Shown: positions 34,891-53,216 of the stretch, one piece after another
Position numbering within the stretch: the stretch's first letter is position 1
How the letters are laid out: each line of letters starts with the position of its first letter
Assembly: GCA_964612685.1 (NCBI GenBank)
Contig: CAZTCF010000004.1
Span: forward strand, 1-53,216
Direction: 5' to 3'
DNA: 53,216 nucleotides
From: Candidatus Woesearchaeota archaeon
GTDB lineage: Archaea; Nanobdellota; Nanobdellia; Pacearchaeales; GW2011-AR1
The notes under the pieces: generated by a model
Told to the model about the DNA's origin: nothing
Database searches by the model: none
What the model saw: the letters and a program-made list of their open reading frames with translations, nothing else
Program-made: the position numbers and the translations under genes

Positions 34891-36486
34891 TTAATAATAA
34901 GAAATAACAAGTTTAAGTCTTCTACTGGAATATGGATGATCTCCGCTATAAATTTCACCCCACACATAGTTTGCCCCCGCTGAAATAAGGAAACCATAAT
35001 TAGCTTTTCTCCCAAGAACCCAATCCTGGACAAGATAAGTAACATCCCAAGAATGCCAAGAATAAACTCCCTCAGGTATGAAATCTATCTTTTCTATAAA
35101 CTCGCTTTCTGGCTGATTCGTCCAAGAAACTTCTGATTCGCTCCAGGGACCTTTTAGTTCGCTAAGGGCTATTGAGGGATTCACGCCTTGAACGTTACTT
35201 AAAGCATAACCATATACTTCTAACCTAGCAGAAAAAATCACTGCGTTTAGGGGTATCTCTCCAAGAGGGAATTGAAAGAGCATTCTATTCATTTGTTTAG
35301 AACCGCTTAAATCCCCATCAGATACCACACTAATTAAAGAATCGTTAGGAAAGTTATTGTAAAAAGAAGCGCCATTAGAGTAAGTAGATATTTGTATCCC
35401 GGCATCTTTCCCCAAGGGTCCTGGTTGAATTGTTAAATTTCTTAGGGGAAAATTATTATTCATCCTTTGCTGTAATCTAAGTAAATCTTCCGTTCTATAC
35501 TCTAAATCCTCCACATAACTTGCATATTTATCTAAGCCCATACTTGCTAAGGAGATTAGACAAGAAGTTGGATCGGGGCTTGAAATACAAGAATATGCTG
35601 TTGAGTTTAGTTTGTAATTATCAACAAAATCTGTAAACCCGTTTTGAACATTTGCGTCATCAAAGAAATTATCTGCCATTTTAAGAAAATAATTGCCGCA
35701 TGTCCAAAGTGCAAGAGGAATCGCAAAACCTCCTGATATAAGAGCTGCTGCTCCAGAAGTAACGCATGGGATTGCTCCAACTATTCTTCCTGTCCACCGA
35801 ATAAATTCTGCCTTTGAGAGGGTTGAGTTGTCTGATTTTAAATTAGATGGCCAAACAAAATCAGTTTGAATCTCTCTAACAACTTCAATATCTCCAGAGG
35901 GAAAAAGAATACCTAAATCTACTTTGTTCCCATTAAAATTACTGAACATAAATATAAAGTCATCGGCAAATACTTTGTCTGGCAAACCTTTATCATTAAA
36001 CATAATCCCATAGTCCTTTTTATTTTTGAAAGAATGATAAAGTACAAACTTTGGGAGAGAATTCTCTTCATCAATAAAAAAATATTCTTCTTTACCAACA
36101 ACCCAATAATCCCAATTAGATTCGTTGTGTACATAAACCGCGCTGAAATCTGGAAGGGGTTTTTTAATGGAGGTGAAAGGGATTTCTATGTAAGTTAAAT
36201 CATCCGAAATAATAGGTACTGAAGAAGAAAAGAATGGGACCAAATCTTCATCTAAAATCTCAAACTTTTGCAACCCTTCTGGAACTCTTGAAAGATAAAA
36301 ATATCCCTTTAAATCTGTAAAAGTGAGTATGTTCCCAGAAACCCTTATTCCTAAATTAGGAAGAGGGTGGGTTTTGTTTCCAAGAAAAACATATCCTTCA
36401 AGTTCTCCGAAGCCGCTTGGAGGAGGATCCTCATCACAGGATATTGCAATAAATATCCAAAGTGAAAAAAAGATAATCTTTTTCAT
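34891..36486 (-). CDS. Lipoprotein with carboxypeptidase-regulatory-like N-domain and C-terminal DNRLRE/CBM96-like domain
   Basis: AISC+DED lipobox; TDLKGYFYLSRVPEG; KDA...RMLFQF...SARL...W.E.EVSWTNQP...WDVT.LVQDW...NYGFLI. Confidence 0.75.
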   Translation of the reverse strand: MKKIIFFSLWIFIAISCDEDPPPSGFGELEGYVFLGNKTHPLPNLGIRVSGNILTFTDLKGYFYLSRVPEGLQKFEILDEDLVPFFSSSVPIISDDLTYIEIPFTSIKKPLPDFSAVYVHNESNWDYWVVGKEEYFFIDEENSLPKFVLYHSFKNKKDYGIMFNDKGLPDKVFADDFIFMFSNFNGNKVDLGILFPSGDIEVVREIQTDFVWPSNLKSDNSTLSKAEFIRWTGRIVGAIPCVTSGAAALISGGFAIPLALWTCGNYFLKMADNFFDDANVQNGFTDFVDNYKLNSTAYSCISSPDPTSCLISLASMGLDKYASYVEDLEYRTEDLLRLQQRMNNNFPLRNLTIQPGPLGKDAGIQISTYSNGASFYNNFPNDSLISVVSDGDLSGSKQMNRMLFQFPLGEIPLNAVIFSARLEVYGYALSNVQGVNPSIALSELKGPWSESEVSWTNQPESEFIEKIDFIPEGVYSWHSWDVTYLVQDWVLGRKANYGFLISAGANYVWGEIYSGDHPYSSRRLKLVISYY

Positions 36487-38953: not shown

Positions 38954-41020
38954 TTATTTGTGTATTTTATTTGTATTTAATTTAATTATTTTTTTCCAGC
39001 CTTTATCGCTTCTTTCTTCTTGTACTTTTATTAATCCTTTAGAAAGTAACTTGTTTTTGAGGATATTCCCTTTTCTTGTAGATAATCCAATTTTATTGTA
39101 TAATTCAACTGTGCTATTCTTATGATAAGGGTTCTTTTCTAGAAAATCTATGAATCTTTGTTCTTCTGAGGAGCTTCTGTAAAATGAATCGTCCTCAGAG
39201 CTAACTTCAATAACTTGGTTATGAATTATTTCTTCATTGGTTGTATTATTAGGTTCTTCTCTAAGATGATCTAATTGATTAGTCTTAATTGAGTTAAGAT
39301 AATTGGACTTAGTTAGTATTCTCCCAAGAGCATAATTTCCTGCTAAAAAGACATCTGACTCCTTGTAGAGTTTTTCAGAAAGTCCTTCTGAAAGTATTTT
39401 TTCAGCTTCCTTTATTGTTTTTCCTTTTTCAACTTGTTTTTTTATAAAATCATAAAGAACATCTTGAGTACTAGTTAATCCTGTTATTTCCTTTTCATAC
39501 CCTCTATCTTCTATTCTTTCTATTATTTCGAGATTGCTCTCTTCATTTTCAGTTATTTCGGGTATTTCTAAGCTTATTTCTATTTCATTTTGAGAGGGAA
39601 TTAATGCTTCTCTAAATTCAGGGTCGCTTTTCTCAACTTCTACCCCTTGGATAACACAATCCATTTTACTTGCGATATTCTCATCTGAAATTGTAGAATT
39701 TCTTAAATCAGTATAAGGGACTTTTATTAGGAAAGGAGAGGTGTATCTTTCTGAAAGTTTCACAACTGCGAATCCCACAGGTAATTGAGTAAATATCTCT
39801 CTTTTCTCTGGCAATTGCATTATAGAACTAACATCGTAAACATCCTGTGGTAATTGCTGTTGGAATGCGATATGGCAAGCGCTGTTTCCTTTCACAGTAT
39901 CACTCAGTTTTGAAATATGTTGATCTAAGCAGATTAAACAAGTTCCATATTCCCTCATTTCTCTATAAATCATATCTGTAACAGATTCCGAAACAAAGTA
40001 TGTTTTACTCTTGAGAAAGATATTATGTGCTTCATCAACGAGTATAGCATGATTAAATGTTTCTTGATTCTTCTGAGAATTAGCTTTTTTTAATTTGAAA
40101 ATATAAGTTAAAATATATTCTGCAAAAAATTTCTTTTCTACATTTCCTAGAGAATTTAATTCAAAAATAACCTTTTTATCAAATAACTCATCAACAGATA
40201 AGCTTTTCTTTCCATCATAATTTATTACTTTACCAAAGTCTCCGAATGTAAGGACTGTTGCAATTCTAAGAGCACTTTCATACCAAGTTGCTTCTCTTCC
40301 TCTTGCCTCTCTTGATTTTATCTCAAGCATTTTCTTAATGTGCATCCAGTTTGGATAGTGCTGTGAACCCTTGTAAACTTCCCATCCTTCAAAGACTTCA
40401 TCTAGTGTTTCTAAAAGTATTTTGTGCACTCCAAAAGAAACACAGAAGCTTTCTGTAAGCAAATCACATAAAGTGTTTATCCATTCCTTGGGGGAAACCC
40501 CTTTTGGAGGAATATTTATATTTGTTTTAAAGAGGTTGCTTATAGAATTATTTCCAACTGTAAAACACATTATTGAGGGATCTGTATGGATTAAAGATCT
40601 GAAACTCTTTTTCCAATCGAAAACTAAAAAGGGTTTATCTTTCTCTATAAACTTTTGAAGAATATTTAATGCCAAAGTTGTTTTTCCACTCCCACTCATG
40701 CCGCTTATACAAACGTGCCTTGGCCAGTCTTGTTCCCTTAGTGCAAATGGGAAAAGTTCTTTATTTGCATAGATTACTTTTGAAAGTTCATACTCTCCTG
40801 AAACTGCGCTTTGTTCAGGAGGTTCAAGCAAAACTTTTTTATCTAAGAACTTTCCTAAGTGTTTTTGATATAAAGCACTTAAGATTTGAACTATCTGGCT
40901 TCTCTCTTCAGGAGATTCAGACATTGAATATCTAAAATAAAGTTCATCTATTTTATTTCCAAGTATTGGTTTTAATTTAGTGCTAATTTCTTCTATAGAA
41001 AGAGACCTTTGAAGAGTCAT
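38954..41020 (-). CDS. HerA/FtsK-like (DUF87) P-loop ATPase with C-terminal winged-helix-like domain
   Basis: HVCISGMSGSGKT, VFDWK, ILVDEAH, REMREYG; acidic linker; STVELY..GLS.RKG..K..L..KGLI. Confidence 0.85.
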   Translation of the reverse strand: MTLQRSLSIEEISTKLKPILGNKIDELYFRYSMSESPEERSQIVQILSALYQKHLGKFLDKKVLLEPPEQSAVSGEYELSKVIYANKELFPFALREQDWPRHVCISGMSGSGKTTLALNILQKFIEKDKPFLVFDWKKSFRSLIHTDPSIMCFTVGNNSISNLFKTNINIPPKGVSPKEWINTLCDLLTESFCVSFGVHKILLETLDEVFEGWEVYKGSQHYPNWMHIKKMLEIKSREARGREATWYESALRIATVLTFGDFGKVINYDGKKSLSVDELFDKKVIFELNSLGNVEKKFFAEYILTYIFKLKKANSQKNQETFNHAILVDEAHNIFLKSKTYFVSESVTDMIYREMREYGTCLICLDQHISKLSDTVKGNSACHIAFQQQLPQDVYDVSSIMQLPEKREIFTQLPVGFAVVKLSERYTSPFLIKVPYTDLRNSTISDENIASKMDCVIQGVEVEKSDPEFREALIPSQNEIEISLEIPEITENEESNLEIIERIEDRGYEKEITGLTSTQDVLYDFIKKQVEKGKTIKEAEKILSEGLSEKLYKESDVFLAGNYALGRILTKSNYLNSIKTNQLDHLREEPNNTTNEEIIHNQVIEVSSEDDSFYRSSSEEQRFIDFLEKNPYHKNSTVELYNKIGLSTRKGNILKNKLLSKGLIKVQEERSDKGWKKIIKLNTNKIHK

Positions 41021-41479
41021 TTAATCCTCACTCAAAATATCATTTAGTTCCTTCATCCTTCCTTCTTTCTCGCTAAGTTCCTTTTCATATGCTCTAAGCT
41101 CTTTTTTCAGGAGAGCGATATCTTTCCAGCAGTCAATTTTCTCGTTAAGTTGAAGTTCAGAAATCTCAACTTTCTTGTTTCTAAGAGCATTCTTTTCAAT
41201 CATTGCCTCATTTTGTCCAAGAGCCCTTAGAGTACTTTCATTTCCAATTATAAGATTATTAATTTCTGATTTTATATCTTCACCCTCTTTTATAAATTCT
41301 AAACTAAGTTTCTTTCTTTCTTCAATTAGATATCTTATCTCTTGAATTGCTTTTTTTAAGGAATCTATTCTTTCTTGCCCAACTGTTTCTAGGAAGGTTC
41401 TATCTGAAAAACCTGTTATTTCGGGTTTTTCAAGCCCTATGAAAGGGGTTTTATCTTTAGATAAGCTTCTTAATTCCAT
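41021..41479 (-). CDS. Coiled-coil protein abutting the ATPase gene
   Basis: Heptad-rich K/E sequence with EKIDCWKDIALLKKELR; stop directly adjoins the ATPase ATG; archaeal TATA upstream. Confidence 0.8.
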   Translation of the reverse strand: MELRSLSKDKTPFIGLEKPEITGFSDRTFLETVGQERIDSLKKAIQEIRYLIEERKKLSLEFIKEGEDIKSEINNLIIGNESTLRALGQNEAMIEKNALRNKKVEISELQLNEKIDCWKDIALLKKELRAYEKELSEKEGRMKELNDILSED

Positions 41480-41595
41480 GATTAATTAGTAGTAACATTA
41501 TTTATAAACCTTGCTATTTTATACCTACTATTTAGTTACATCAATTTAAAAATAAAGGTTTTTATATAGCCCTATTTTTGTAACAATATTAGTTT

Positions 41596-41679
41596 GTGGG
41601 TGTGCCGGAGCGGTCAAACGGGACAGACTCAAAATCTGTTAGCTTAGTGCTTACCTAGGTTCGAATCCTAGCACCCACA
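41596..41679 (+). tRNA. tRNA-Leu(CAA)
   Basis: GTGGGTG/CACCCAC acceptor, ACAGA-CTCAAAA-TCTGT arm, long variable arm. Confidence 0.95.
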
Positions 41680-41814
41680 TAGGGCAAGATTTATAAACCG
41701 ATTCTAATTAACAAATTTATCTGTGAGCCAAAAGGAGCTCCCAGGTTCTGCGAGCGCAAGCGAGAGTAGAATTAGTTTAATTCTATATCGTTTAAAGTCT
41801 TGTTTATACGAAAA

Positions 41815-42186
41815 ATGAAGTCAAAAACAAAAATATCCAAACAAATGGAAAGGAAAAGTAATTCCGAACTAATGGAAACAATTATAGCTGGCAAAAAACA
41901 GGAAGCCTGGCTTGGAGTTAGTGGGATTCTTTCAAGTCCAAGGAGAAACAGAATATGTATAAATCTTGAGCAAATAAACAAAGATTCCAAGGCAGGGGAG
42001 ATAATTGTTATCCCTGGCAAAGTACTTTCTCAGGGAGATATTGATAAAAAGATAAAGGTTGTTGCTTTTAACTTTTCAGACAAGGCAAAAGAAAAATTAT
42101 TAAGTGCTAAATGTGAAGTTTCAAGTATATTAGATGAAATTAAATCAAATCCTTCTGGGAAGGGAATGAAAATATTGAAAAAATGA
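41815..42186 (+). CDS. rpl18e: 50S ribosomal protein L18e
   Basis: PRRNR..INL..I, VIPGKVL..G, AFNFS; ATG start at 41815. Confidence 0.93.
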   Translation: MKSKTKISKQMERKSNSELMETIIAGKKQEAWLGVSGILSSPRRNRICINLEQINKDSKAGEIIVIPGKVLSQGDIDKKIKVVAFNFSDKAKEKLLSAKCEVSSILDEIKSNPSGKGMKILKK

Positions 42187-42575
42187 AAATAATTGATGGA
42201 AAAAATGCAATACTTGGAAGATTAGCTACTTATGCTGCTAAGGAAGCCTTAAAAGGAGAAGAGATAAAGATAGTTAATTGTGAGCAGATAATAATAACTG
42301 GGAATAAAGAGTTTATAGAAAAAGATTTTAGGGAAAAAAGAAGTAGGGTGGGTACAAGACAAATTGGTCCAAAGGTTTCAAGAACAAGCGAAAAAATTGT
42401 TAAAAGGGCTATAAGAGGTATGCTTCCAGATCATAGAGTAGGAAGAGGAAGAGAAGCGTTTAAAAGAATAATTTGTTATGTTGGAGTACCTCCAGAGTTT
42501 AAAGATATTAAAAAGATCTCATTTAATGATGAGAACAAATTAAAATACATCCAAGTTAAAGATATTTCAAAATGA
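42183..42575 (+). CDS. rpl13: 50S ribosomal protein L13
   Basis: IDG..ILGRLA, KRAIRGMLP, YVGVP. Confidence 0.95.
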   Translation: MKIIDGKNAILGRLATYAAKEALKGEEIKIVNCEQIIITGNKEFIEKDFREKRSRVGTRQIGPKVSRTSEKIVKRAIRGMLPDHRVGRGREAFKRIICYVGVPPEFKDIKKISFNDENKLKYIQVKDISK

Positions 42576-42973
42576 AAAAAATAATAACCTCCGGTAAAAG
42601 AAAGACTGCAATAGCAAAAGCCGAGATAAAAGAAGGGAATGGAAAGATAACAATAAATAAAGTAGATTATAAATATCTTCATAAATTTGATGTGTTAAGA
42701 ATAAGAGAACCCCTGCTTATTGCTGAAAAAGTTCTAGGAAAGACAAACTTCGATGTGATTATTTCTGTTAAGGGAGGAGGAGAGAAAGGACAGGTGGAAG
42801 CTGCAAGACTTGCACTTGCAAGAGCAATCATAAAATTCTCTGAATCTACGGAACTAGAGAAACAATTCTTGGAATATGATCGTAATCTTTTAGTTGCAGA
42901 CGTAAGAAGGAAGGAAGCTAATAAGCCTGGAGATTCAAAAGCTAGGGCTAAGAGACAAAGTTCTTTCAGATAA
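42572..42973 (+). CDS. rps9: 30S ribosomal protein S9
   Basis: GKRKTAIA, KGGG..GQ..AAR, YDRNLLVAD.RR, RQSSFR. Confidence 0.97.
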   Translation: MKKIITSGKRKTAIAKAEIKEGNGKITINKVDYKYLHKFDVLRIREPLLIAEKVLGKTNFDVIISVKGGGEKGQVEAARLALARAIIKFSESTELEKQFLEYDRNLLVADVRRKEANKPGDSKARAKRQSSFR

Positions 42974-43003
42974 TTTTATAAAAGAATATTTCGTATACTA
43001 CCT

Positions 43004-43255
43004 ATGGTTAAAAGGGGTAAAAAGGTTAAGTCTGATAAGAGAGTTAGCAAGGATAAAAAAGTCAATTGGGTTTTAACACTTATAATGTCTATAGTCTTTG
43101 GATGTTTAGGAGTGGATAGATTCCTTATGGGACATGTTGGGCTTGGAATACTTAAGCTAATAACTCTTGGAGGATGTGGGGTTTGGTGGTTGGTAGATTT
43201 AATATTAATCGCAACAAAACACAAATTTAATGGAATTGAATGGGTTCAAGATTAA
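43004..43255 (+). CDS. TM2 domain protein
   Basis: FGCLGVDRFLMG..GLGILKLITLGGCGVWWLVD. Confidence 0.9.
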   Translation: MVKRGKKVKSDKRVSKDKKVNWVLTLIMSIVFGCLGVDRFLMGHVGLGILKLITLGGCGVWWLVDLILIATKHKFNGIEWVQD

Positions 43256-43569
43256 ATGAATTTTTAAGCAAATTAATTACTTTAAGCTATTCTAGATATA
43301 GATTTTTTACTTTTTTAGGAGTATTAATTTTATTAAGAATACTTCCCTTTTCTCTTATTGAAAAAACCCATAGCTTTTCAATTTGTTCGATACTACTTGG
43401 AAAATATTGCTATTCTGTTGGTATAACTCGAGGGGTGGCAAGTTTGTTAAGAGGAGAATTTCAAAGAGCAATAGAATTTAATCCATTGTCTTTTTTAGTA
43501 ACCCTCGTATTGGTTTTATTTATATCCCATGACTTCTTCAAAGGATTTATAAAATATAAAAAACAATAA
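43240..43569 (+). CDS. DUF2752-like membrane protein
   Basis: C..GKYCYSVGITR...G.F..A..FNPL (degenerate CPGCGxTR). Confidence 0.7.
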   Translation: MGSRLNEFLSKLITLSYSRYRFFTFLGVLILLRILPFSLIEKTHSFSICSILLGKYCYSVGITRGVASLLRGEFQRAIEFNPLSFLVTLVLVLFISHDFFKGFIKYKKQ

Positions 43570-43574
43570 ATAAT

Positions 43575-43865
43575 ATGAAAAAAGAAGAAGAAAAACTAAG
43601 AAAAGAAAGAGGAGAAGCACTGATGAGGATTCCTGTAGGAATAATATCTGGGATAATAATTTATGTCTGGGCTTATCTCATAGGAGTTTTCTTTATTATA
43701 AATTTAATATACAAAATATTTTCGGGTAAAAGAATAGATGAACTTGCAGCAATGTCTGAAACATGGAACACTCAAAATTATTATTTTATGAGGTATATGA
43801 CTTTCTGTTCTAATGAAAGACCTTTTCCTTTTGAAGAATTGAAAAAGGATATGAATAAAATTTAG
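43575..43865 (+). CDS. DUF4389-like membrane protein
   Basis: LMRIP...YMTF.SNERPFPF. Confidence 0.75.
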   Translation: MKKEEEKLRKERGEALMRIPVGIISGIIIYVWAYLIGVFFIINLIYKIFSGKRIDELAAMSETWNTQNYYFMRYMTFCSNERPFPFEELKKDMNKI

Positions 43866-43867
43866 AA

Positions 43868-44287
43868 TTAATTTTTCTTTATACTTAATTTTTCCAGTTT
43901 GTCTTGAACATGATTAAATAAAGTAGTTGAAACCAGAGGTTTGTGTTTTCCCTCGTGAATTTGTCCCCCAAATCTGACTTTTCCCACATATGCGAAGTTC
44001 CTCAATACCTTTTTTAATCCGTTAACTGAAAGTCTATGTTTTGAGGCAAGTATGGATAGATTAATATCTGGCTGAAGAAACTCTTCAAAAATCTCTTCTA
44101 CTTCCCTTGAATTTTGTGCAGGGATTAATATTTTGTCGCGTAAATCCCATTCGTACCCAAAGGGGGCTCTCGACATATGCTTCCCTTCTGAAAACTTTTT
44201 TATCATACCTTTTTTCTGGGATTCTCCTCTATTTTCTTTGGAATCATGTTCTATTTCAAACTCATGTCCGCATTTTGGGCATTTCAT
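43868..44287 (-). CDS. Zn-ribbon plus serine-recombinase DNA-binding ('Recombinase') domain, no catalytic domain
   Basis: CPKC; APFGY; LRNFAYVG; GKHKPLVS..LF..VQ. Confidence 0.8.
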   Translation of the reverse strand: MKCPKCGHEFEIEHDSKENRGESQKKGMIKKFSEGKHMSRAPFGYEWDLRDKILIPAQNSREVEEIFEEFLQPDINLSILASKHRLSVNGLKKVLRNFAYVGKVRFGGQIHEGKHKPLVSTTLFNHVQDKLEKLSIKKN

Positions 44288-45117
44288 TTCATAACCTCAT
44301 CTATAGGTGATTTAATTTTTTTAAGTTCTTCTCTTGAAATATGGGTATATATCTGGGTTGTCGAAAGATCACTATGTCCCAACAACTCTTGTATTTTTCT
44401 TATATCTGTTCCATTCTCTAAAAGATGAGTTGCAAAACTATGCCTTAATGTGTGACAATGAACATCTTTATTTATCCCTGCCCTTTTCCCTGCTTTAGAA
44501 ATAATCTTTTGAAGATTTCTTTCAGATAATCTTCCTTTTGGTCCCGTAAACAAATATTCTTTTTTTTCTTCTTTTTGTTTTTCAACTTGAGTCTTTAAAT
44601 CTTCTAAAAGAAATTCTGGAAGGTTAAACACCCTATCCTTTTTACCTTTTCCCTGACGAACACTTCCAATTTTCTCCTCGAAATTTAAATCTTTAACTTT
44701 TAAATTAACTAACTCTGAAACTCTAAAACCACAAGCATACATAAAAGATACCATGGTCTTAGATTTTTTTGTATCTATGGAATTGATAAGTGTCTTAACT
44801 TCTTCTTTTGTTAGAACAGAAGGTATCCTTTTTTCTTTTTTGGGACGTTTTATACTAAGGGTTATATCTTTATGAAGAATATTTGTGAAAGAGTACCTTA
44901 TTGCAGAAAGAAAAACTATGATTGAAGAAGAGGAAGCTTCTCCAAGCTTCTCAACAAGATAGGACTTTAAGTCGTCTTCATTTATTTCTTGAGGTTCTTT
45001 TTTGATATAATCAAGAAATTTTCTGTTACAATCAAGATAATTTCTAAGAGTATATTCAGAGTTCTTAGATATCTTTAATTCTATTTCAAGTTTCTTTAAA
45101 AAATCTTCTGAATTCAT
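44284..45117 (-). CDS. xerA: Tyrosine recombinase XerA
   Basis: N-terminal SAM-like domain; GFRVSE, GKGKKDR, HTLRHSFATH, LGH, TQIYTH; the whole catalytic set is intact. Confidence 0.93.
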   Translation of the reverse strand: MNSEDFLKKLEIELKISKNSEYTLRNYLDCNRKFLDYIKKEPQEINEDDLKSYLVEKLGEASSSSIIVFLSAIRYSFTNILHKDITLSIKRPKKEKRIPSVLTKEEVKTLINSIDTKKSKTMVSFMYACGFRVSELVNLKVKDLNFEEKIGSVRQGKGKKDRVFNLPEFLLEDLKTQVEKQKEEKKEYLFTGPKGRLSERNLQKIISKAGKRAGINKDVHCHTLRHSFATHLLENGTDIRKIQELLGHSDLSTTQIYTHISREELKKIKSPIDEVMK

Positions 45118-45186: not shown

Positions 45187-45348
45187 CTATTTGGGTTTAT
45201 TGTTTTTTGAAGAATGTTTCATCAACTCTTTTTGATTTATCAACATAATTGCTACTGCACCCGCTATAAACCAGGGGTTCCAGACAAATGCTAAAATCAA
45301 GAATAAAAGTGCTAAAATGGAAAGTGAAAATAATCTTAAGTTAAACAT
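45187..45348 (-). CDS. 53-aa membrane protein (not in ORF track)
   Basis: MFNLRLFSLSILALLFLILAFVWNPWFIAGAVAIMLINQKELMKHSSKNNKPK; 11 nt downstream of the 320-aa gene. Confidence 0.65.
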   Translation of the reverse strand: MFNLRLFSLSILALLFLILAFVWNPWFIAGAVAIMLINQKELMKHSSKNNKPK

Positions 45349-45359
45349 TTTAGAAAGAA

Positions 45360-46322
45360 TTAACTTCCTGGAGCAACCGTTGCCCCAAAGATTATATTAC
45401 CTTGACAGGTTCCAGCAACCCCTAAAGGAACGTAAATTCTCCAGTAAGAAGCGTTAATTGCTTCATTAAATGTATCATTCTGTCTATAATTCAAATCATA
45501 TTTTTTAACCACGGGGTAAGAAGTTAAATTGGTATAGTTTGCAACAAATTGGGCAAGATCTAAAACTCCGGGATTACTATTGGTTAAATTGTATTTCTCA
45601 TTCTCTATACTGATATTTTTTATAAAACCAAGCGTACAATTCATTGCATTACCATCTTCCAATGCAAACCCGTAACCGCTCAAAGAAAGATTAATTTTAA
45701 CATTTCCATAATTGGTTACATTTGAAACGTTCTCTAGAGAAACTTCTGTTGCATTTACTTCTCCATAATAAATAAAATCGGGTAATCCTAAAGCCAACAA
45801 ACTGGAGATGTTAATAATATCACTTCCATATCCCACCTTATTTTTTGAATCTGATACTTTAAGAGTACAATTCCAATCTCCTGCATTTGTATAATACCAG
45901 ATATCCATGCTGCAGTTAATCCATGCTGTATATGTATCGTCTTCAATTATATCACAGGAATAGTTTGTATAATGATAGTTGTTATCATTTCCATCAATAT
46001 AAGAAGATGAGACAGAGTCAAAAAATGTAGCAGTTGCATTGTCTATATCTTGCCACCCGTTGAAGTCCGTAGCTAATCCTGAGCAGTAGATTGTTTTTGT
46101 GGAGTTTGGGATAAGTGAAAGAGTGGAATCATTGTTTTGAATCGTAACATTCGTTAGCTCTGGGAAAACATTCCCCACGGTTAAATTTGTAATTACAGTA
46201 ACATTGTGTTCTCCCACCCCTGCAAAAACCTCTCCAGGGAGAAAAGAGAATAATATGATGAGTAGAGCTATCTCTAATAAAATCAAAGATACTACTGTTT
46301 TTGTTTTATTTTTTAATATCAT
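45360..46322 (-). CDS. Secreted two-domain beta-sandwich glycoprotein
   Basis: Signal peptide; Ig-like domain (CS.ATD.NG.DI, W.CTL.V.D); second domain YG...NVTNYGNV.I.L.L.G...YW..VP.G...G.I.F; about 20 NxS/T sequons. Confidence 0.8.
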   Translation of the reverse strand: MILKNKTKTVVSLILLEIALLIILFSFLPGEVFAGVGEHNVTVITNLTVGNVFPELTNVTIQNNDSTLSLIPNSTKTIYCSGLATDFNGWQDIDNATATFFDSVSSSYIDGNDNNYHYTNYSCDIIEDDTYTAWINCSMDIWYYTNAGDWNCTLKVSDSKNKVGYGSDIINISSLLALGLPDFIYYGEVNATEVSLENVSNVTNYGNVKINLSLSGYGFALEDGNAMNCTLGFIKNISIENEKYNLTNSNPGVLDLAQFVANYTNLTSYPVVKKYDLNYRQNDTFNEAINASYWRIYVPLGVAGTCQGNIIFGATVAPGS

Positions 46323-46323
46323 T

Positions 46324-47073
46324 TTAACCTAACTCAACATAAAGATAATATGCGGTTGATCCCGAGAATCCTTGTGATCCGTTTTCTGGAACAAGCATCT
46401 GGAAATCATATGTATTTCCATCATAACCTACTAAACCGGGTTCTAGGATTGTTGCATAAATAATGCTAGTTCCATCATACAATGCCATTTCTTCAAAATC
46501 ATCATCTTGTGTACCATCACTTACAAAAGTGTTTAAAGTGGGGCATTCATTTGCACTAAATGGAGTTCCCGCGACATAAAATAAATCATGAGTTCCAGTT
46601 TGGAAAGTGGTATTTATAGTATCCTGCCTTAAAGAAATATTATGAAACAGCGCCACATCTTCTGTTGCAAGAGTAGTGGCAACATCTGCACAATCAATTA
46701 GATTCCATTCTATTGTCGAGGAATCTCTTGTTGCATAAACTCTTCCGGAAGTTACAGCAAAACTCCAATCATAAATAGTTGAACCTGCAGAATCATCCAG
46801 TGTGAATGCAGCAGTAATCCATCCTACGAAAGCTTTCCAATGAGTATTTTGAACTGTTGCAGACAAGTTTAATGCTGCAATGTATCCCCCAGAAATATTG
46901 AAAAAACCTGCTGCAGTGGTATTCATAGTCTCATTCCAAACAGAGATAACCTCGCTTGGACCTACAGGGTCTGCCGCGGATATAAAAATATTTGATGAAA
47001 CACAAATTGAAAATATTACACTTGCAAATAAGACAAATGCAAATAATGCTCTGTTTTCTCTTTTTTTAAACAT
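46324..47073 (-). CDS. Secreted surface protein, paralogue 2 (candidate fibre subunit)
   Basis: Signal peptide; W...G...L.DSAG..IYDWS...G.VYA...I.W..I.C...HDLFY...EC...LYD...DFQMLVPENG...YYLYVELG. Confidence 0.85.
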   Translation of the reverse strand: MFKKRENRALFAFVLFASVIFSICVSSNIFISAADPVGPSEVISVWNETMNTTAAGFFNISGGYIAALNLSATVQNTHWKAFVGWITAAFTLDDSAGSTIYDWSFAVTSGRVYATRDSSTIEWNLIDCADVATTLATEDVALFHNISLRQDTINTTFQTGTHDLFYVAGTPFSANECPTLNTFVSDGTQDDDFEEMALYDGTSIIYATILEPGLVGYDGNTYDFQMLVPENGSQGFSGSTAYYLYVELG

Positions 47074-47144
47074 ATTTTCGGTTCTTTATTCTCCTTCTCT
47101 CTTGAACTTCTTTTTCATCAATTTAAAATAAAAAAATAAATTAT

Positions 47145-47903
47145 TTACTCTAACTCTACCCAGAAGTAATAAGTAGTAGTCGAGGTATCTATTAAATGAC
47201 CATTTTCTAATACAAGCATTTCAAAGTCATGTGCTCTCCCATCAAAACCTAGTGGACTTTCTTCATCCAAGATAGATGTAAAAACTACGCTAAGAGTTGT
47301 AGGGTCATATAATAAAACTTCCTGGAACATGCTATCTGTTGCATTTTGATTAGATGCAAAGATGTGTGTACTTGCACACTCTCCTGGAGTGAAATCAATA
47401 TTGTTTGTATAAAACAAGTCATGAGTGAGACCAAATCCATTCTCATGAGTTCCACCTACAGAGAAAGTTTCATTAACTCCATCCACATCGTCTGAAGCTA
47501 TTCCAAACATTGCTTCTAAATCTTCAAAATAAGTTCCAAGTTCAGTTTCTAAACACTTGATTGTACCCCATGTAATTGAATCATTGGTAGAGGCATAGAT
47601 TTCACCCTCTGGAGAAGCCAAAGACCAGTTGTACATAACATTGTCAGCGCTGTCTGCCAATTGGATTGTACCTGAAACATTTCCAAAATAACCTTGCCAG
47701 GACTGAGTTATAGAAATACCTGTTACCTCAAGTTCAGTGATATTTCCCGCAATAGCAAAATCACTATCTGCAGCGGTCGCATTCATCCTTGAACTGGTTA
47801 AATTTGTTACGTCTGCACCAAATGGTTCTACAGCCAAAACTGTAAGAGACAAAAATACAATTAACAAAATAGAAAATAGAAACAACTTGCCAAATTTACC
47901 CAT
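47145..47903 (-). CDS. Secreted surface protein, paralogue 1 (candidate major fibre subunit)
   Basis: Signal peptide; AGNITEL, SWQGYFGNV, LADSA, YNWS, GEIYAST, HDLFY, EC, LLYD, DFEMLVLENG, YYFWVELE; AGGAGG SD. Confidence 0.85.
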   Translation of the reverse strand: MGKFGKLFLFSILLIVFLSLTVLAVEPFGADVTNLTSSRMNATAADSDFAIAGNITELEVTGISITQSWQGYFGNVSGTIQLADSADNVMYNWSLASPEGEIYASTNDSITWGTIKCLETELGTYFEDLEAMFGIASDDVDGVNETFSVGGTHENGFGLTHDLFYTNNIDFTPGECASTHIFASNQNATDSMFQEVLLYDPTTLSVVFTSILDEESPLGFDGRAHDFEMLVLENGHLIDTSTTTYYFWVELE

Positions 47904-47970
47904 CTCTTTTTTTTATCCTCCTTTCAATTTTAAAAACTTTTAGTTTTTATAAAGTAAATTAGCAAGAGTG

Positions 47971-47986
47971 ATTTATAAATCTTTCG
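47971..47986 (-). promoter_or_regulatory. BRE/TATA promoter upstream of the 252-aa gene
   Basis: CGAAAGATTTATAAAT matches the window-wide archaeal consensus. Confidence 0.6.
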
Positions 47987-48047
47987 AGATTAGATGTAAA
48001 CTTCAAGGACAACAACAGGTAAGTTAAAATATAATTGATAGGTATAA

Positions 48048-51000
48048 TTAGAATATCTCTACATAAAATATTGCGGCTCTCGTGTCCGTAGTTCTATATT
48101 CTCTTAATTTGGCAGGTACTCTTATCTCATAGTCATACGTTCCATATGTTCCTTCTTCATTTTTATTTATTGGCGAAATAAAAATTAAATCTTCCTTATC
48201 TGCTAAATCAAATTCTCCATTTGTATCATCAGAATAATCCCATAATATTCCCGTAAAAAAATTAGAATTATTTGTAGAATTAATTACCGGAACATCGTGT
48301 ATGGAAGTGTCAAAAGAATAAATATTTGAAACATATTTTGGAGCCCCAAAATCAGTATATGTGAGATAAATTGAATCCGCATATCCTGTAGAATTTAAAA
48401 GAGTGTCGACCTCTTCAAAATCAGATGTGCTATCTGAGTTTAATTTTGTTTTTCCAAGAGATTGTAGATTTCCCCAAGAGATGTAAGAATCATAGTCTGT
48501 GATGTAAACATTTCCATGATTAAAATCTTCTGTGCTCCAATTGGTTAATCTAAGCTCTAAAGAATCGGCCAGCACCAAATTACTAGAAGATAAAACATCT
48601 CCGTAAAAAAAGTGCCAAGAACCAATATCAATGCTCTTGCTTGCTTTATTGTTAGATTCATTCAACTCAATAAAACTTCCATTAGTAGCTAAGGGAGGAT
48701 CGACAACGATAAATATTTCTGATGGTCCCATCTGTGAAGACCAATCTTTGGTGATATTTATCTGACTAAACATAGAAAGATTTGTATATATATCTGAACC
48801 AATTTTAACCCCTCCCAAATCTGGATCTCCCTCGTAAAAGCTGATAGTTACATTTCCAATATCTACTCCTGCAAGATTATGTATTGTTGCAGTTATCTTT
48901 ATAACTTGATTTTCTTTTGGATTTGAATTATTAAAAAATATTTCTGATGAATTAACAAAAAAGTCTGGATAAGTAAGGTTAAATTTTCTCAATTCGCTTA
49001 TATTTGTATTTTTCATTTGGTCCCAACAAGTAACATTCCAGGAGTGTTCTCCCTGTCCCAATACGGAAGTAAGAACATATTCTCTTTTTGAAATATTGCT
49101 TGTCACCCAAACATTAGGCCTTCTTACTATTCCATCTATGGTTAGATTACATTGAAGAATATTATCCAAAACATCTATTGCTGTCCAATTAAAATAAACT
49201 CTGTCTTCATTGAAATCTATGCCAGAATTATTTTCTGGAGAGTTCAAAATTATTAAAGGAGGAGAGAAATCCATGGAGAAATATTTGTGAGTTGCATTTG
49301 CATATGAAGGGATAGGATTATTTGTATCAAAACATCCCACCGTCCAATTATGTAATCCTTCTGTTATACCCGAAATAGTAAAATTAGGATTTATAATTAA
49401 TTGAGCAGAAGATTTTGATTCATTTGGAACATCGTCTATGTATAAAGTACAATTGTTGATTATCTGTGCATCTTCTGCTAAGTAGTGGAAAGTGACTGAA
49501 CTACCAAAACCATAAAAATCATCATCGGGGGTATAAAGAGTGATCTGAGGAGGAGCATATACTGTAAAATTTCTTGTTTCACTTGTGTTGGAATTCTCAG
49601 CATTGTCTATACATTCGATTGTCCAATTGTAACTTCCATCATCCAACAAATACGGGTATATTTCTGGAGTTGAATTTTCTGCAATAACTTGATCATAAAA
49701 AATATCATTGATGAAAATACTACAAGAGATGTTTTCATTTAAATTGTCTTCCACTGTAAAATTAAATAAAACTTCATTCCAATCTAAGGTTTCGTTTGGT
49801 TCAGGAAAGTTAAGAACAATATTTGGTGCTTCTGTGTCTATGTATAACGTCCTATTTTCATCGCTACCCATTACTCCTAAAGAATCTACACAATAAACAT
49901 TCCAGGTATAATTCCCTTGAGGAAGAACCTCATTGAAATAATTAGAATTATCGTTAATTATAGGTGTGGAATTAACAGCTACAAAAGAATCATCTATGTA
50001 TAATGAACAATTAACAATGTCCTCTTCATATTTGTAAGCATAGTACTCAAATTCTATTTCTGTATAATTAATCCATAAATCAGGTTCGGGAGATATCAGA
50101 ATAACTTCGGGTGGAGCAAAAGTAGTAAATGATCTTGTTTCGCTTGTATTTAAATTTCCAGATAAATCCGAACAAGAAACATTCCAAAGATGTTCTCCTG
50201 AGATTAAATCCCTTGTAATCAAATTTATGCTATTATTTTCTAAAATTAAAGGAGTTATATTATTATCTACAGTAAAATTACATGTTAAATTTTGTGCAAG
50301 GTTATCTCTAGCTGTAAAGTTAAAAGTTATTTGTGAAGAATAAATTACCTCTTCATCTTCGGGGTAAGTTAATTCTATTTGTGGAGAGGAATTGTCTCTA
50401 TAAAAGAATCGTGTTTCTGAATTGTTTTGTAACCCATATGTATCAAAACATCTTACATCCCAGCTATAAAAACCATCAGATAAATCGGTTATTGAAAAAT
50501 TTGTTAATTGATTGTTTAATGGAGAGTGAGCTACATCTTTGAAAGAATTATTTATGTAAAGAGAACAATTCGAGAGATTAGTGTTATCTGAAGGAGTGTA
50601 TTGTAATAAAATATTTTCTTTAAACCAAGTTAAATTTTCTGTAATTAAAGAAATCTTTGGAGATTCTCTAATGGTTATCTCTCTATTTTCACTGATATTA
50701 TAATGTCCTGCAGAATCTACGCAACTTACATTCCAAACTTTTAAACCATCTGTTAATCCAATTATAGGTCTGCTTGTATTTGCATTTCTTGTTACAACTA
50801 TATTATTATCATATTTCTCACCTACGCTTAAATTACAAATTAGCTCTGAATCAAGATTATCTGTAGCATTAAAATAAAAACTTAAATAAGAGGATTGTGA
50901 AATTGTTGAAGTCTCTGGATTTAAGAGATAAACAATAGGGTTTTGTGTATCTACATAAAAAGATCTTGTAGAAGCAAGTGTACTATATCCTCCATTATCG

Positions 51001-53216
51001 GTTATGTTAACTGTCCAATTATAAAATCCATCTTGAAGCGAGAGTGTAAAATTGTTGTATGCTTTATTAATAATTAGGGATTGGTTCGATTGGTTGTATG
51101 TTCCATTTAAATATAAATCTGCAACATTTAAGTCATTGTTGTCAGAGGCATTATAAATAAGAGTAACTAATGAAGTATTAAACCACCAATAATTAGAGGT
51201 TATCAAAAATATTTCTGGAGGAACATCATCTATATTAAAATGGAATGTTTCACTTGTATGGCTCCTTAAAGAATTATCAAAACATGTAACATTCCAATAA
51301 TGTGTTCCAACGTTTAAGTAACCAGAATTATAACTTGCATTTGTTCCATTTTCAACATAAACTCCGGAGTGAATTGTTTTTCCATCTAATATAACATTAC
51401 AACTAAGATTTAAATCCATATTATCTGTTACATTAAAAACTAAATTTAAATTATTTACAAGGTTGTTTGCTCCATCTTCAGGATAAATTAATTTAACAAA
51501 TGGATTTTCTAGATCAACATAAAATATCCTTGTTTCATTTGAAGCTGCTTCTAAATTAGTCCTATCTGTGGCATTAACACTCCAATTATAAATTCCTTGC
51601 CCAAGAAAGATTGTAAAATTATTAACTGCATTATTTGTTATTGCAGATTGGTTTGTTTGATTTTTTTGCCCATTCAGGATTAATGTTGAATTTGCAAGAT
51701 TGTCATTTAAATCAGAAACATTGTAATAAAGAACTACTTGAGATGAATTAAACCAAGTTAAATTGGTTGGAGAAGTTAAATTTACGCTTGGAGGAGTTGC
51801 CCCCGCAGAAGTTACCGTTACAGGGTTTGTTGTTGTCCCATTATAATTATCATATGTTCCAACTGAAATACATCGGATATTGTTGTCTGAAGAATAAGCA
51901 TTCCCTCTTATAACAAATGTAGTGTTTTGAGAAACATTTGTTACATTCCCTAAATAATGGGGATTAGTTTCTCCTGAGTTTAAAATAAGATTTCCTGAAG
52001 AACCTATATTGACCCATCCTGAAGTTGAAGTGTTTCTTTGAATGTACACATTAACATTTCTGCAAGTTCCAAAAGAACAATTAACTTCGCATGTTGCCTC
52101 GAAAGTGTCTTCTTGGGGAACATATGGATCAACTAAGGGGGAAACTAAGTCTGTATGTAAAAATCCTTCTGTAGTTAAATTAACAACAACATAGGAGTTT
52201 GTTCCTGAATCCCAAGTATGAGTTAATACTTTATCTTTATTATGAGTATTATATGCATTAATAACTAATTTTAGTCTATCACTTTGTCCCAAATAGATAT
52301 CTCTATCTATACAAGTAGTGTTTGTTCCTGATGCTGCATTTTCAAAAATACCGCTATTTGCATCATTCCCTAGTTGACATATTAAAGTATCTGTTCCCCC
52401 CCTAGAAACATAAAGTTTCCAAGTTATTGCAATCTTTCCCGCAGGGGTTGAAGAGCTAAATGTTCCAGAAAAACTAATAGGGGTTCCAGAAGGGATAACA
52501 GCCCCATTATATCCCATATATTGGGAAGTTGCACTAACTATATTTGCTAATCCTCCTGCACCAATATCAAATATAACAGAATTCGTTGTTGCATCCTGGG
52601 TGCTTTTTAATTTTATTTCTGCTAAAGTATTTCTGGAAGGATTAAATGTTGAACTTTCATATAATGTTCCTGTAAATAATTCGGGGGTTATAGAGACATT
52701 TATTGTCCTATTTTGGCTGAACCCTGTTCTACCTCCTTCATCAACACATGAAACATACCAAGTGTATATTCCATTATCTAAGAATTCATTGAAGGTCATA
52801 TTTGAATTTTTTGTTATTGAATACTCTGTTTTCTTTAATTGATTGTTTATATATAAAGAACAATTCTCAACTGAAGATAAATCAGAAACATTATACACAA
52901 AATATAAATTATCATCGCTTGTTATTGTAGAAGAGTTTGGAGGGTAAATTAAATTAATTATTGGAGCAGCTAAATCAAATGAGAATGTATAATTATTTGC
53001 TCCAAAAAAACATCCATTAGAAGAGTCACAGCATTGTATATTCCATATATAATCTCCAGAAGAGGAATAAGTTTTGTTTATATAATTAAAAGTGTTATTA
53101 AAAATTGTGGATTGATTTGTTAAATTTCTATGCCAACTTCCAGTTGAATTGTCCCACAAACTGCAATTCAAAAAAGTAGCAGAAGAAATTGGAGTAAAAT
53201 TAAAGACAACATTTTG
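48048..53216 (-). CDS. Giant (>1720 aa, 5'-truncated) surface glycoprotein: about 12 Ig-like repeats, a unique domain, CARDB and a C-terminal subunit-like domain
   Basis: Frame is open to the window edge (QNVVFNFTP...). Repeats P.I.L..P...D..C.L..G..W.V.C.D; CARDB (PD...I.ATI.N.G...VDP..E.NE.NN); no C-terminal TM. Confidence 0.9.
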   Translation of the reverse strand, partial: QNVVFNFTPISSATFLNCSLWDNSTGSWHRNLTNQSTIFNNTFNYINKTYSSSGDYIWNIQCCDSSNGCFFGANNYTFSFDLAAPIINLIYPPNSSTITSDDNLYFVYNVSDLSSVENCSLYINNQLKKTEYSITKNSNMTFNEFLDNGIYTWYVSCVDEGGRTGFSQNRTINVSITPELFTGTLYESSTFNPSRNTLAEIKLKSTQDATTNSVIFDIGAGGLANIVSATSQYMGYNGAVIPSGTPISFSGTFSSSTPAGKIAITWKLYVSRGGTDTLICQLGNDANSGIFENAASGTNTTCIDRDIYLGQSDRLKLVINAYNTHNKDKVLTHTWDSGTNSYVVVNLTTEGFLHTDLVSPLVDPYVPQEDTFEATCEVNCSFGTCRNVNVYIQRNTSTSGWVNIGSSGNLILNSGETNPHYLGNVTNVSQNTTFVIRGNAYSSDNNIRCISVGTYDNYNGTTTNPVTVTSAGATPPSVNLTSPTNLTWFNSSQVVLYYNVSDLNDNLANSTLILNGQKNQTNQSAITNNAVNNFTIFLGQGIYNWSVNATDRTNLEAASNETRIFYVDLENPFVKLIYPEDGANNLVNNLNLVFNVTDNMDLNLSCNVILDGKTIHSGVYVENGTNASYNSGYLNVGTHYWNVTCFDNSLRSHTSETFHFNIDDVPPEIFLITSNYWWFNTSLVTLIYNASDNNDLNVADLYLNGTYNQSNQSLIINKAYNNFTLSLQDGFYNWTVNITDNGGYSTLASTRSFYVDTQNPIVYLLNPETSTISQSSYLSFYFNATDNLDSELICNLSVGEKYDNNIVVTRNANTSRPIIGLTDGLKVWNVSCVDSAGHYNISENREITIRESPKISLITENLTWFKENILLQYTPSDNTNLSNCSLYINNSFKDVAHSPLNNQLTNFSITDLSDGFYSWDVRCFDTYGLQNNSETRFFYRDNSSPQIELTYPEDEEVIYSSQITFNFTARDNLAQNLTCNFTVDNNITPLILENNSINLITRDLISGEHLWNVSCSDLSGNLNTSETRSFTTFAPPEVILISPEPDLWINYTEIEFEYYAYKYEEDIVNCSLYIDDSFVAVNSTPIINDNSNYFNEVLPQGNYTWNVYCVDSLGVMGSDENRTLYIDTEAPNIVLNFPEPNETLDWNEVLFNFTVEDNLNENISCSIFINDIFYDQVIAENSTPEIYPYLLDDGSYNWTIECIDNAENSNTSETRNFTVYAPPQITLYTPDDDFYGFGSSVTFHYLAEDAQIINNCTLYIDDVPNESKSSAQLIINPNFTISGITEGLHNWTVGCFDTNNPIPSYANATHKYFSMDFSPPLIILNSPENNSGIDFNEDRVYFNWTAIDVLDNILQCNLTIDGIVRRPNVWVTSNISKREYVLTSVLGQGEHSWNVTCWDQMKNTNISELRKFNLTYPDFFVNSSEIFFNNSNPKENQVIKITATIHNLAGVDIGNVTISFYEGDPDLGGVKIGSDIYTNLSMFSQINITKDWSSQMGPSEIFIVVDPPLATNGSFIELNESNNKASKSIDIGSWHFFYGDVLSSSNLVLADSLELRLTNWSTEDFNHGNVYITDYDSYISWGNLQSLGKTKLNSDSTSDFEEVDTLLNSTGYADSIYLTYTDFGAPKYVSNIYSFDTSIHDVPVINSTNNSNFFTGILWDYSDDTNGEFDLADKEDLIFISPINKNEEGTYGTYDYEIRVPAKLREYRTTDTRAAIFYVEIF

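Follow-up and report, generated by a model that had tools for sequence, protein, structure and literature searches.

The C-terminal domain of a giant secreted protein from a Woesearchaeota-type archaeon is homologous to two small secreted proteins encoded beside it

Homology of the C-terminal domain with two small secreted proteins

A stretch of 53,216 nt from a Candidatus Woesearchaeota archaeon, a tiny symbiotic member of the DPANN archaea (contig CAZTCF010000004.1, hereafter the window), encodes on its minus strand a giant secreted protein, of which the C-terminal 1722 residues are present (48048..53216), the frame being open at the window edge. The 190 residues at its C-terminus, designated gC (48051..48620), are homologous to residues 68-252 of protein A (252 aa, 47145..47903) and residues 80-249 of protein B (249 aa, 46324..47073), two small secreted proteins that follow the giant in the same minus-strand run of genes. 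The homology, proposed in a first-pass annotation made from the sequence, is confirmed here. The run continues with a gene for a 320-aa secreted protein, a 53-aa gene and then a Xer-type recombinase gene. In a near-identical contig, CAYPLY010000002.1 (from a Candidatus Woesearchaeota metagenome-assembled genome, a GTDB representative, and identical to the window over the A gene and most of the ribosomal-protein cluster), the giant is 2437 aa long and carries an N-terminal Sec-type signal peptide.

Pairwise BLASTP similarity of gC is weak against both A (E=5e-6 over 62 aa) and B (E=0.009 over 185 aa); A and B are clear paralogues of each other (34% identity, E=3e-35). The profile comparison of the three domains, set beforehand as a check, revealed significant similarity. 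A gC profile built from 10 sequences matched a small-protein profile of 40 sequences with a probability of 90% and E=1.4e-6 over 172 columns. Addition of the preceding CARDB domain to the query gave 95% and E=2.9e-8 and did not extend the match, which reaches from G-SW / Q-SW to both C-termini. Using hhalign with 40 diverse gC sequences, we obtained 96.9% and E=1.3e-10 against the A family, and the same profile gave 96.7% and E=4.1e-10 against six B-family sequences from other loci. As controls for the profile comparison, a reversed template gave E=0.1 and the best of 20 column-shuffled templates E=0.027. Among the 420 six-frame open reading frames of the window, B and A are the best non-self matches of the gC hidden Markov model (HMM), and the best non-self match of the small-protein HMM in the window is residues 1533-1591 of the giant. 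The same pattern of HMM matches recurs in six other loci.

Chance or compositional similarity, conceivable between N/S/T-rich, beta-rich secreted proteins of an AT-rich genome in view of the weak BLAST matches and HMM-to-sequence scores of 15-27 bits, is refuted and carries a negligible probability, because the profile-profile values (E=1e-10) are far below those of the 21 composition-preserving controls (0.027 or more), the alignment is collinear from end to end up to both C-termini independently in two paralogue families, the matches are reciprocally best within the window and repeated in six other loci, and the secondary structure agrees.

The boundaries of gC are as first annotated. The copy begins with its SW motif at 48620, and its final sense codon, ending at 48051, is followed by a stop codon at 48050..48048. 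It is preceded directly by a CARDB domain (48639..48968, minus strand), with at most 6 linker residues according to Pfam and Foldseek. The CARDB domain was assigned to PF07705 (28.5 bits against a cut-off of 22.7, E=1.8e-6, profile positions 2-100 of 101), the Pfam match stops 6 residues before SW, and the model of the domain matches 3idu in Foldseek (E=9.5e-8, TM-score 0.85). The motif-by-motif correspondence suggested for the three proteins was recovered in the profile alignments with one exception, the pairing of ILWD with LLYD, which was not reproduced. The common ending had been written (F/Y)xVE(L/I)x; B ends in LYVELG, and the ending is instead aromatic-V-E-(L/I)-x. Two cysteines (C117 and C176 in A) are invariant in A and B alike and missing from gC. 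The gC family possesses in turn a specific, nearly invariant loop, VPxxNSTNNSNFxTGILWDxSDDTNGEFD (window 48198..48290, minus strand), with no counterpart in A or B. From its composition this acidic, sequon-rich loop might bind a metal or a glycan.

A single N-terminal hydrophobic segment with a small-x-small site behind it is present in each of the giant, A, B and the 320-aa protein, and their N-x-S/T sequons amount to 2.8 to 6.9 per 100 aa (about 4.3 per 100 aa in the 2437-aa version of the giant). The giant further carries Ig-like repeats (Big_13, Big_7). No C-terminal hydrophobic segment or anchor was found in any of the four proteins, so that after cleavage of the signal peptide they could be held only by protein-protein contacts. 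The 320-aa protein (45360..46322, minus strand), which is heavily glycosylated by prediction with 22 sequons, is unrelated in sequence to A, B and gC, and was ruled out as a fourth homologue (hhalign E=0.03 and 0.1).

Distribution of the gene module

More than 1000 homologues of A were found, all of them unnamed and without a Pfam family; the best 120 share 52-94% identity with A. For the 320-aa protein 434 homologues were retrieved, which are also unnamed and belong to no Pfam family, and Pfam and NCBIfam scans of A, B and the 320-aa protein themselves returned no family. An exhaustive profile search with CARDB+gC retrieved 6427 proteins at E<1e-3, a number which overcounts gC since the query included the CARDB columns, about 16 of the best 150 being CARDB-repeat proteins. 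Among these best 150, gC was present in 132 of 148 newly retrieved representatives, with one copy each. It lies 0-1 residue from the C-terminus in 131 of the 132, in proteins from 284 to 7158 aa in length, and the representatives end in V-x-(F/L/I)-Y-x-(E/D)-(L/I/V)-x-stop, as A and B do.

The best 80 loci from GTDB species representatives are all labelled as Woesearchaeota, Pacearchaeota, Nano- or other DPANN archaea, or simply 'archaeon'. In six related loci all giants (2322-4414 aa where complete) have gC at their end, with A and B behind them, and a gene for a protein of 320-332 aa comes after these wherever the locus extends so far. In 29 of the 80 GTDB loci gC is located 150-900 nt upstream of A, with B and the 320-aa family nearly always next. 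The giant, A, B and the 320-aa gene, the last placed by synteny, are thus a conserved module in Woese-/Pacearchaeota that has stayed together over wide divergence. The N-terminal part of the giant in locus L002 is matched by PF27237 (AF_1625_C, a recent Pfam family), and in L005 the PF27237 match is on a separate 685-aa protein upstream of a shorter giant, which shows that the giant can be split. No mention of AF_1625 was found in the literature searched.

N-terminal segments of A and B

In front of the (S/H)W motif, A and B possess a signal peptide and about 43-44 mature residues that are absent from the giant. In A, the signal peptide comprises residues 1-24, the N-terminal segment residues 25-67 (47703..47831, minus strand) and the homology core residues 68-252; in B, a signal peptide and a segment of about 44 residues precede a core that starts at W80. 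An alignment of 40 A homologues displays a variable hydrophobic region followed by a near-invariant (V/L)xA|VEPFGA motif (LA|VEPFGA in A), in which P27 and G29 of A are invariant. Signal-peptide cleavage of A and B is inferred from this pattern. The middle of the segment is variable, sequon-rich and unstructured. Arg39-Ala40 is strongly conserved within the segment of A, and B has mostly Lys at the matching place; a second processing event at Arg39-Ala40 is conceivable.

Similar mature N-termini are seen in the 320-aa protein (GVGEHNVTVITNLTVGNV), A (GANVVNLTS) and B (GPSEVISVWNET). Each of the three has a Gly-containing tip and then an alternating hydrophobic stretch with a sequon, and judged by these features A, B and the 320-aa protein may carry the same kind of arm. 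Two familiar classes of surface protein were considered and rejected. Type IV pilins or archaellins are ruled out by an N-terminal hydrophobic segment that is poorly conserved, with the conserved motif after it, and by a beta-rich core. Sortase or archaeosortase substrates are ruled out by the chains of the giant, A and B, which end one residue past the last strand (Y-x-E-L/I-x-stop) with no C-terminal transmembrane segment; moreover, no match to a sortase or archaeosortase family was found at the locus in Pfam or NCBIfam.

Predicted structures

AlphaFold models were obtained for A, from an alignment without any gC sequence (mean predicted local distance difference test, pLDDT, 73), and for CARDB+gC, with no small protein among the aligned sequences (mean pLDDT 90, predicted template modelling score 0.81). 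The DSSP strings of the A and gC models agree at 72% of 168 hhalign positions, against 33-51% in shifted registers, and the predicted secondary-structure elements of gC and A are collinear in order. Differing predicted folds, named by the first-pass annotation as a ground for refuting the homology, are not what this collinearity along the hhalign alignment indicates.

In the A model, a helix at residues 3-20 corresponds to the signal peptide, residues 27-51 have pLDDT<50 and no secondary structure, and beta-strands occur from residue 53 onward. The strand at residues 53-64 of A, just before SW, matches in position the last CARDB strand, residues 112-119 of the giant model, so that the giant clearly lacks only residues 25-52 of A. 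Of the segment of some 45 residues first described as missing from the giant, only about 28 residues are thus clearly unmatched. The least confident part of the core in both models is the N-terminal hairpin region (residues 131-150 of the gC model and 51-100 of A). The LVLADS...NWS hairpin, at 48531..48590 of the window (minus strand), is the sole low-confidence stretch of gC, with pLDDT of about 55. This hairpin (SW...NWS) is also the stretch most alike between gC and A/B, and low confidence in both models is as expected of an interface that becomes ordered upon assembly.

The A model had no convincing relative in the PDB by Foldseek (best E=0.09; FaeG at E of about 1 with a TM-score of 0.12; no pilin match) and nothing significant in BFVD. 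The 50 PDB matches listed for the CARDB+gC model all cover about 120-220 columns, and the CARDB/Ig part accounts for them. PDB sequences searched with the A and gC profiles and with the 320-aa protein yielded no match for A, noise for gC and no match for the 320-aa protein. Overall, none of the pilin, thread, TasA/ABP, cannula, Tat-fimbriae (tafi) or lectin folds was matched in the model and profile searches with A or gC, and the fold and family scans of gC, A and B matched no lectin or carbohydrate-binding module (CBM) family.

Possible roles of gC

Taken together, the forms in which gC serves as a cap or as an anchor make it probable that gC co-assembles with A and B. The homology without the arm, the single terminal copy and the conserved gene order, and further the absence of anchors, the near-invariant tip of A (unstructured in the monomer model, and paralleled in archaeal thread subunits) and the fact that A looks like an abundant, highly constrained structural subunit, all point to gC as a joint to an A/B assembly. 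In that case gC would co-assemble with A and B through the interfaces that A and B use on each other, and one giant would thereby be joined to an extracellular assembly of many small subunits. The form that we favour, tentatively and at somewhat less than even probability, takes the giant of this Woesearchaeota-type DPANN archaeon as a fibrillar adhesin, N-glycosylated and secreted through Sec, and gC as a subunit mimic that acts as a terminal cap. Lacking the mature arm (the VEPFGA tip and about 28 residues), gC could accept the arm of a neighbour and offer none, and hence it could occupy a terminal position only. It would then be a tip or cap in the FimH sense.

Several points weigh against such a cap. 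Polymer formation by A and B and the donation of a strand or arm are inferred by analogy. According to the models, the last CARDB strand may replace the strand that precedes SW in A, and gC would then have no open edge; the gC model reaches high confidence (pLDDT 90) and looks complete with no partner present. The monomer model of A leaves the N-terminal segment outside any groove, which is uninformative rather than negative. Neither a fold match to a known donor-strand subunit by Foldseek nor a sequence match to solved structures was found. Moreover, with 2400-7000 residues the giant is long enough to be the fibre itself, and a role of gC as a basal anchor would fit equally well.

Such a basal anchor, which is equally economical and which we hold to be possible though somewhat doubtful, would have the giant as the fibre and gC, A and B as a closed pseudo-symmetric hetero-oligomer at its cell-proximal end, fastening the C-terminus to the envelope and possibly including the 320-aa protein, the 53-aa membrane protein or membrane machinery. 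The N-terminal segments of A and B would be tethers or contacts to a membrane complex and not donor strands, consistent with the linker-like character of their variable, sequon-rich and unstructured middle part. Tandem Ig-like repeats extend over thousands of residues of the giant with no other anchor, its C-terminus leaves the Sec channel last and is thus nearest to the membrane, each gC has exactly two distinct small paralogues beside it, and a membrane ATPase and a protein with ten transmembrane segments are linked to A paralogues (see below). However, the canonical cleavage sites indicate that A and B are probably not membrane-anchored themselves, and the promoter- and terminator-like elements of A together with its strong conservation suggest an excess of A over the giant. 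Pairs of A-like and A' proteins are also encoded in modules without a gC-bearing gene of their own, which a basal anchor does not readily accommodate.

It is improbable that gC, A and B each bind the same ligand, for example an envelope glycan, an S-layer or a host surface, and not each other, their gene neighbourhood reflecting duplication only. The confident gC model without a partner and the acidic loop confined to gC would suit this explanation. But a single copy in terminal position and an invariant order of four genes over wide divergence would not be expected, the conserved mature N-terminus of A and B would be left unexplained, and the lectin or CBM matches that it would lead one to look for are missing from the fold and family scans.

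A second, ATPase-bearing module

A second type of module is present in many other loci, where A paralogues are linked to a membrane ATPase and a protein with ten transmembrane segments. The genes encode, in order, a 1129-aa ATPase, a 107-aa protein, a 287-aa coiled-coil protein, an A-like protein, an ArsR-type regulator, a further A-like protein, the ten-transmembrane-segment protein and a 484-aa protein. The HerA/FtsK/VirB4-like ATPase of the 1129-aa protein is its cytoplasmic part; two transmembrane segments and an external part of about 640 residues (CarboxypepD_reg) make up the rest. In the near-identical contig the second module (L016, 1283..10906) lies directly upstream of the giant, with A-like proteins of 262 and 233 aa, a ten-transmembrane-segment protein of 366 aa and a secreted Cys-rich protein of 484 aa. 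At least seven further genomes share this placement next to the giant with the present one, and the loci with the module include L018, L020, L023, L026, L033 and L034. The coiled-coil gene is linked to A paralogues in about 40 loci, many of which have the ATPase and the ten-transmembrane-segment protein as well. Where the two modules adjoin, one locus encodes four A/B-type paralogues and one gC.

The linkage of A paralogues to the ATPase and the ten-transmembrane-segment protein suggests, from gene order, a structure built by a machine. A DPANN-wide, undescribed surface organelle, in which an A/B fibre or tube carries exchangeable giant adhesins plugged in via gC, is a broader and unlikely extension of this idea. 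The HerA/FtsK/VirB4-like ATPase and the ten-transmembrane-segment protein would then help to assemble subunits of the A/B family, and the organelle, if it exists, would serve Woese-/Pacearchaeota for attachment to the host and perhaps for transfer.

Comparison with known systems

The likeness to FimH and CfaE drawn in the first-pass annotation holds as far as a subunit-like, arm-less C-terminal domain is concerned. In FimH, PapG and CfaE an adhesive N-terminal part is joined to a C-terminal domain which is homologous to the subunits and lacks their N-terminal extension, the adhesin is confined to one end, and the subunit genes are in the same operon. The differences are that the adhesive part of the giant has 2200-7000 residues and is not one lectin domain, that the archaeal host has no periplasmic chaperone, usher or outer membrane, and that no Ig-like pilin fold was detected by Foldseek. 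Neither a PapD-like chaperone nor an outer-membrane usher was matched by Pfam or NCBIfam in the module or among its neighbours. An archaeal host devoid of chaperone and usher excludes membership in the chaperone-usher family.

Archaeal threads offer a second comparison. The thread subunits have conserved first residues after the cleavage site, and their tails are donor strands (PMC9715654). The thread protein Saci_0406 resembles A and B as a beta-rich, N-glycosylated subunit secreted via Sec and signal peptidase I with conserved residues after cleavage; the homologous neighbour gene Saci_0405 has been proposed to encode the terminal subunit, and no chaperone or usher is known (PMC9715654). Saci_0405, however, is a putative cap that keeps its tail and is without an acceptor site, whereas gC is without the arm, i.e. 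it has the opposite polarity. Threads also have no giant adhesin, and no sequence or fold similarity to A or gC was found.

TasA/TapA, AbpA bundling pili, CanA cannulae and Tat-fimbriae are comparable in that their subunits are small, beta-rich and secreted and bear an arm at the N-terminus, in having additional homologous subunits, and in belonging to archaeal or Gram-positive envelopes; none of them includes a giant that carries such a subunit-like domain at its end. Gram-positive sortase pili with tip adhesins and archaeosortase/PGF-CTERM proteins are comparable in having a large adhesin whose C-terminal pilin-like domain is common to adjacent shaft subunits, but the giant, A and B lack a C-terminal sorting signal or transmembrane helix. 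CARDB (PF07705) accounts for the domain before gC, not for gC. The literature searched on donor-strand archaeal pili, on Woese-/Pacearchaeota filaments, on DPANN proteins with CARDB or DUF2341 and on DPANN giant proteins does not describe the module. For the A/B/gC and 320-aa families and the linked membrane module, no Pfam or NCBIfam family, related solved structure or literature description was found. We therefore regard A, B and gC as a new family whose design, in part supported by these analogies, may work like that of tip adhesins, and like that of a thread subunit and its cap with inverted polarity.

DPANN archaea live attached to other cells, and we know of no contact molecules identified for large Woese-/Pacearchaeota groups. 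Thousands of giant surface proteins of up to 7158 aa have one terminal module in common, which is homologous to small, highly conserved, co-encoded secreted proteins. If gC is a joint between adhesin and subunits, it provides a concrete model for displaying and swapping adhesins and adds a new subunit fold to the few chaperone-free archaeal filaments. In that case gC, A, B, the 320-aa protein and the ATPase would also be sequence handles for data from cryo-electron tomography and metaproteomics.

Gene layout and other features of the window

The window has a G+C content of about 30% and holds the archaeal L18e-L13-S9 ribosomal-protein cluster. The intergenic region before A (47904..47980, minus strand) contains, as read from the sequence, two TATA-like boxes (TTTATAAA) at 47972..47979 and 47944..47953 and a strong Shine-Dalgarno motif, GGAGG, at 47917..47921, and is a putative promoter. 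A T-rich run directly 3' of the A stop codon (47124..47140, minus strand) resembles an archaeal terminator and may act as one. These elements are consistent with a higher expression of A than of the giant. On the 3' side of the module, a 53-aa hydrophobic protein with a transmembrane-like segment is encoded at 45187..45348 (minus strand), with a 52-aa counterpart in L001; it is a possible membrane partner, and its membership in the module is uncertain.

Two stretches of the window, 53216 to 48727 and about 48000 to 45000, are identical to CAYPLY010000002.1. In between lies a sharp divergent patch (48016..48714) with about 140 differences, including a 9-nt indel of TNG codons, and with identities of about 80% at the nucleotide and 87% at the amino-acid level. 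The patch spans the end of CARDB, the whole of gC and 32 nt past the stop codon; recombination of the allele, strain mosaicism or chimeric co-assembly could account for it. A second diverged region begins near 44400 (about 41100..44500).

At 38954..41479 (minus strand), a 152-aa coiled-coil protein is encoded ahead of a soluble DUF87/HerA-like ATPase of 688 aa. This pair is also found near the module in L001 and L004, and it echoes the pair of ATPase and coiled-coil protein in the upstream module. Small membrane proteins with TM2, DUF2752 and DUF4389 domains are encoded at 43004..43865 (plus strand), between the ribosomal-protein genes and the recombinase; all three are retained in L001, and DUF4389 also in L002 and L004. 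A 531-aa protein with a CBM96 carbohydrate-binding module and a disaggregatase-related repeat (34891..36486, minus strand) is likely another surface protein.

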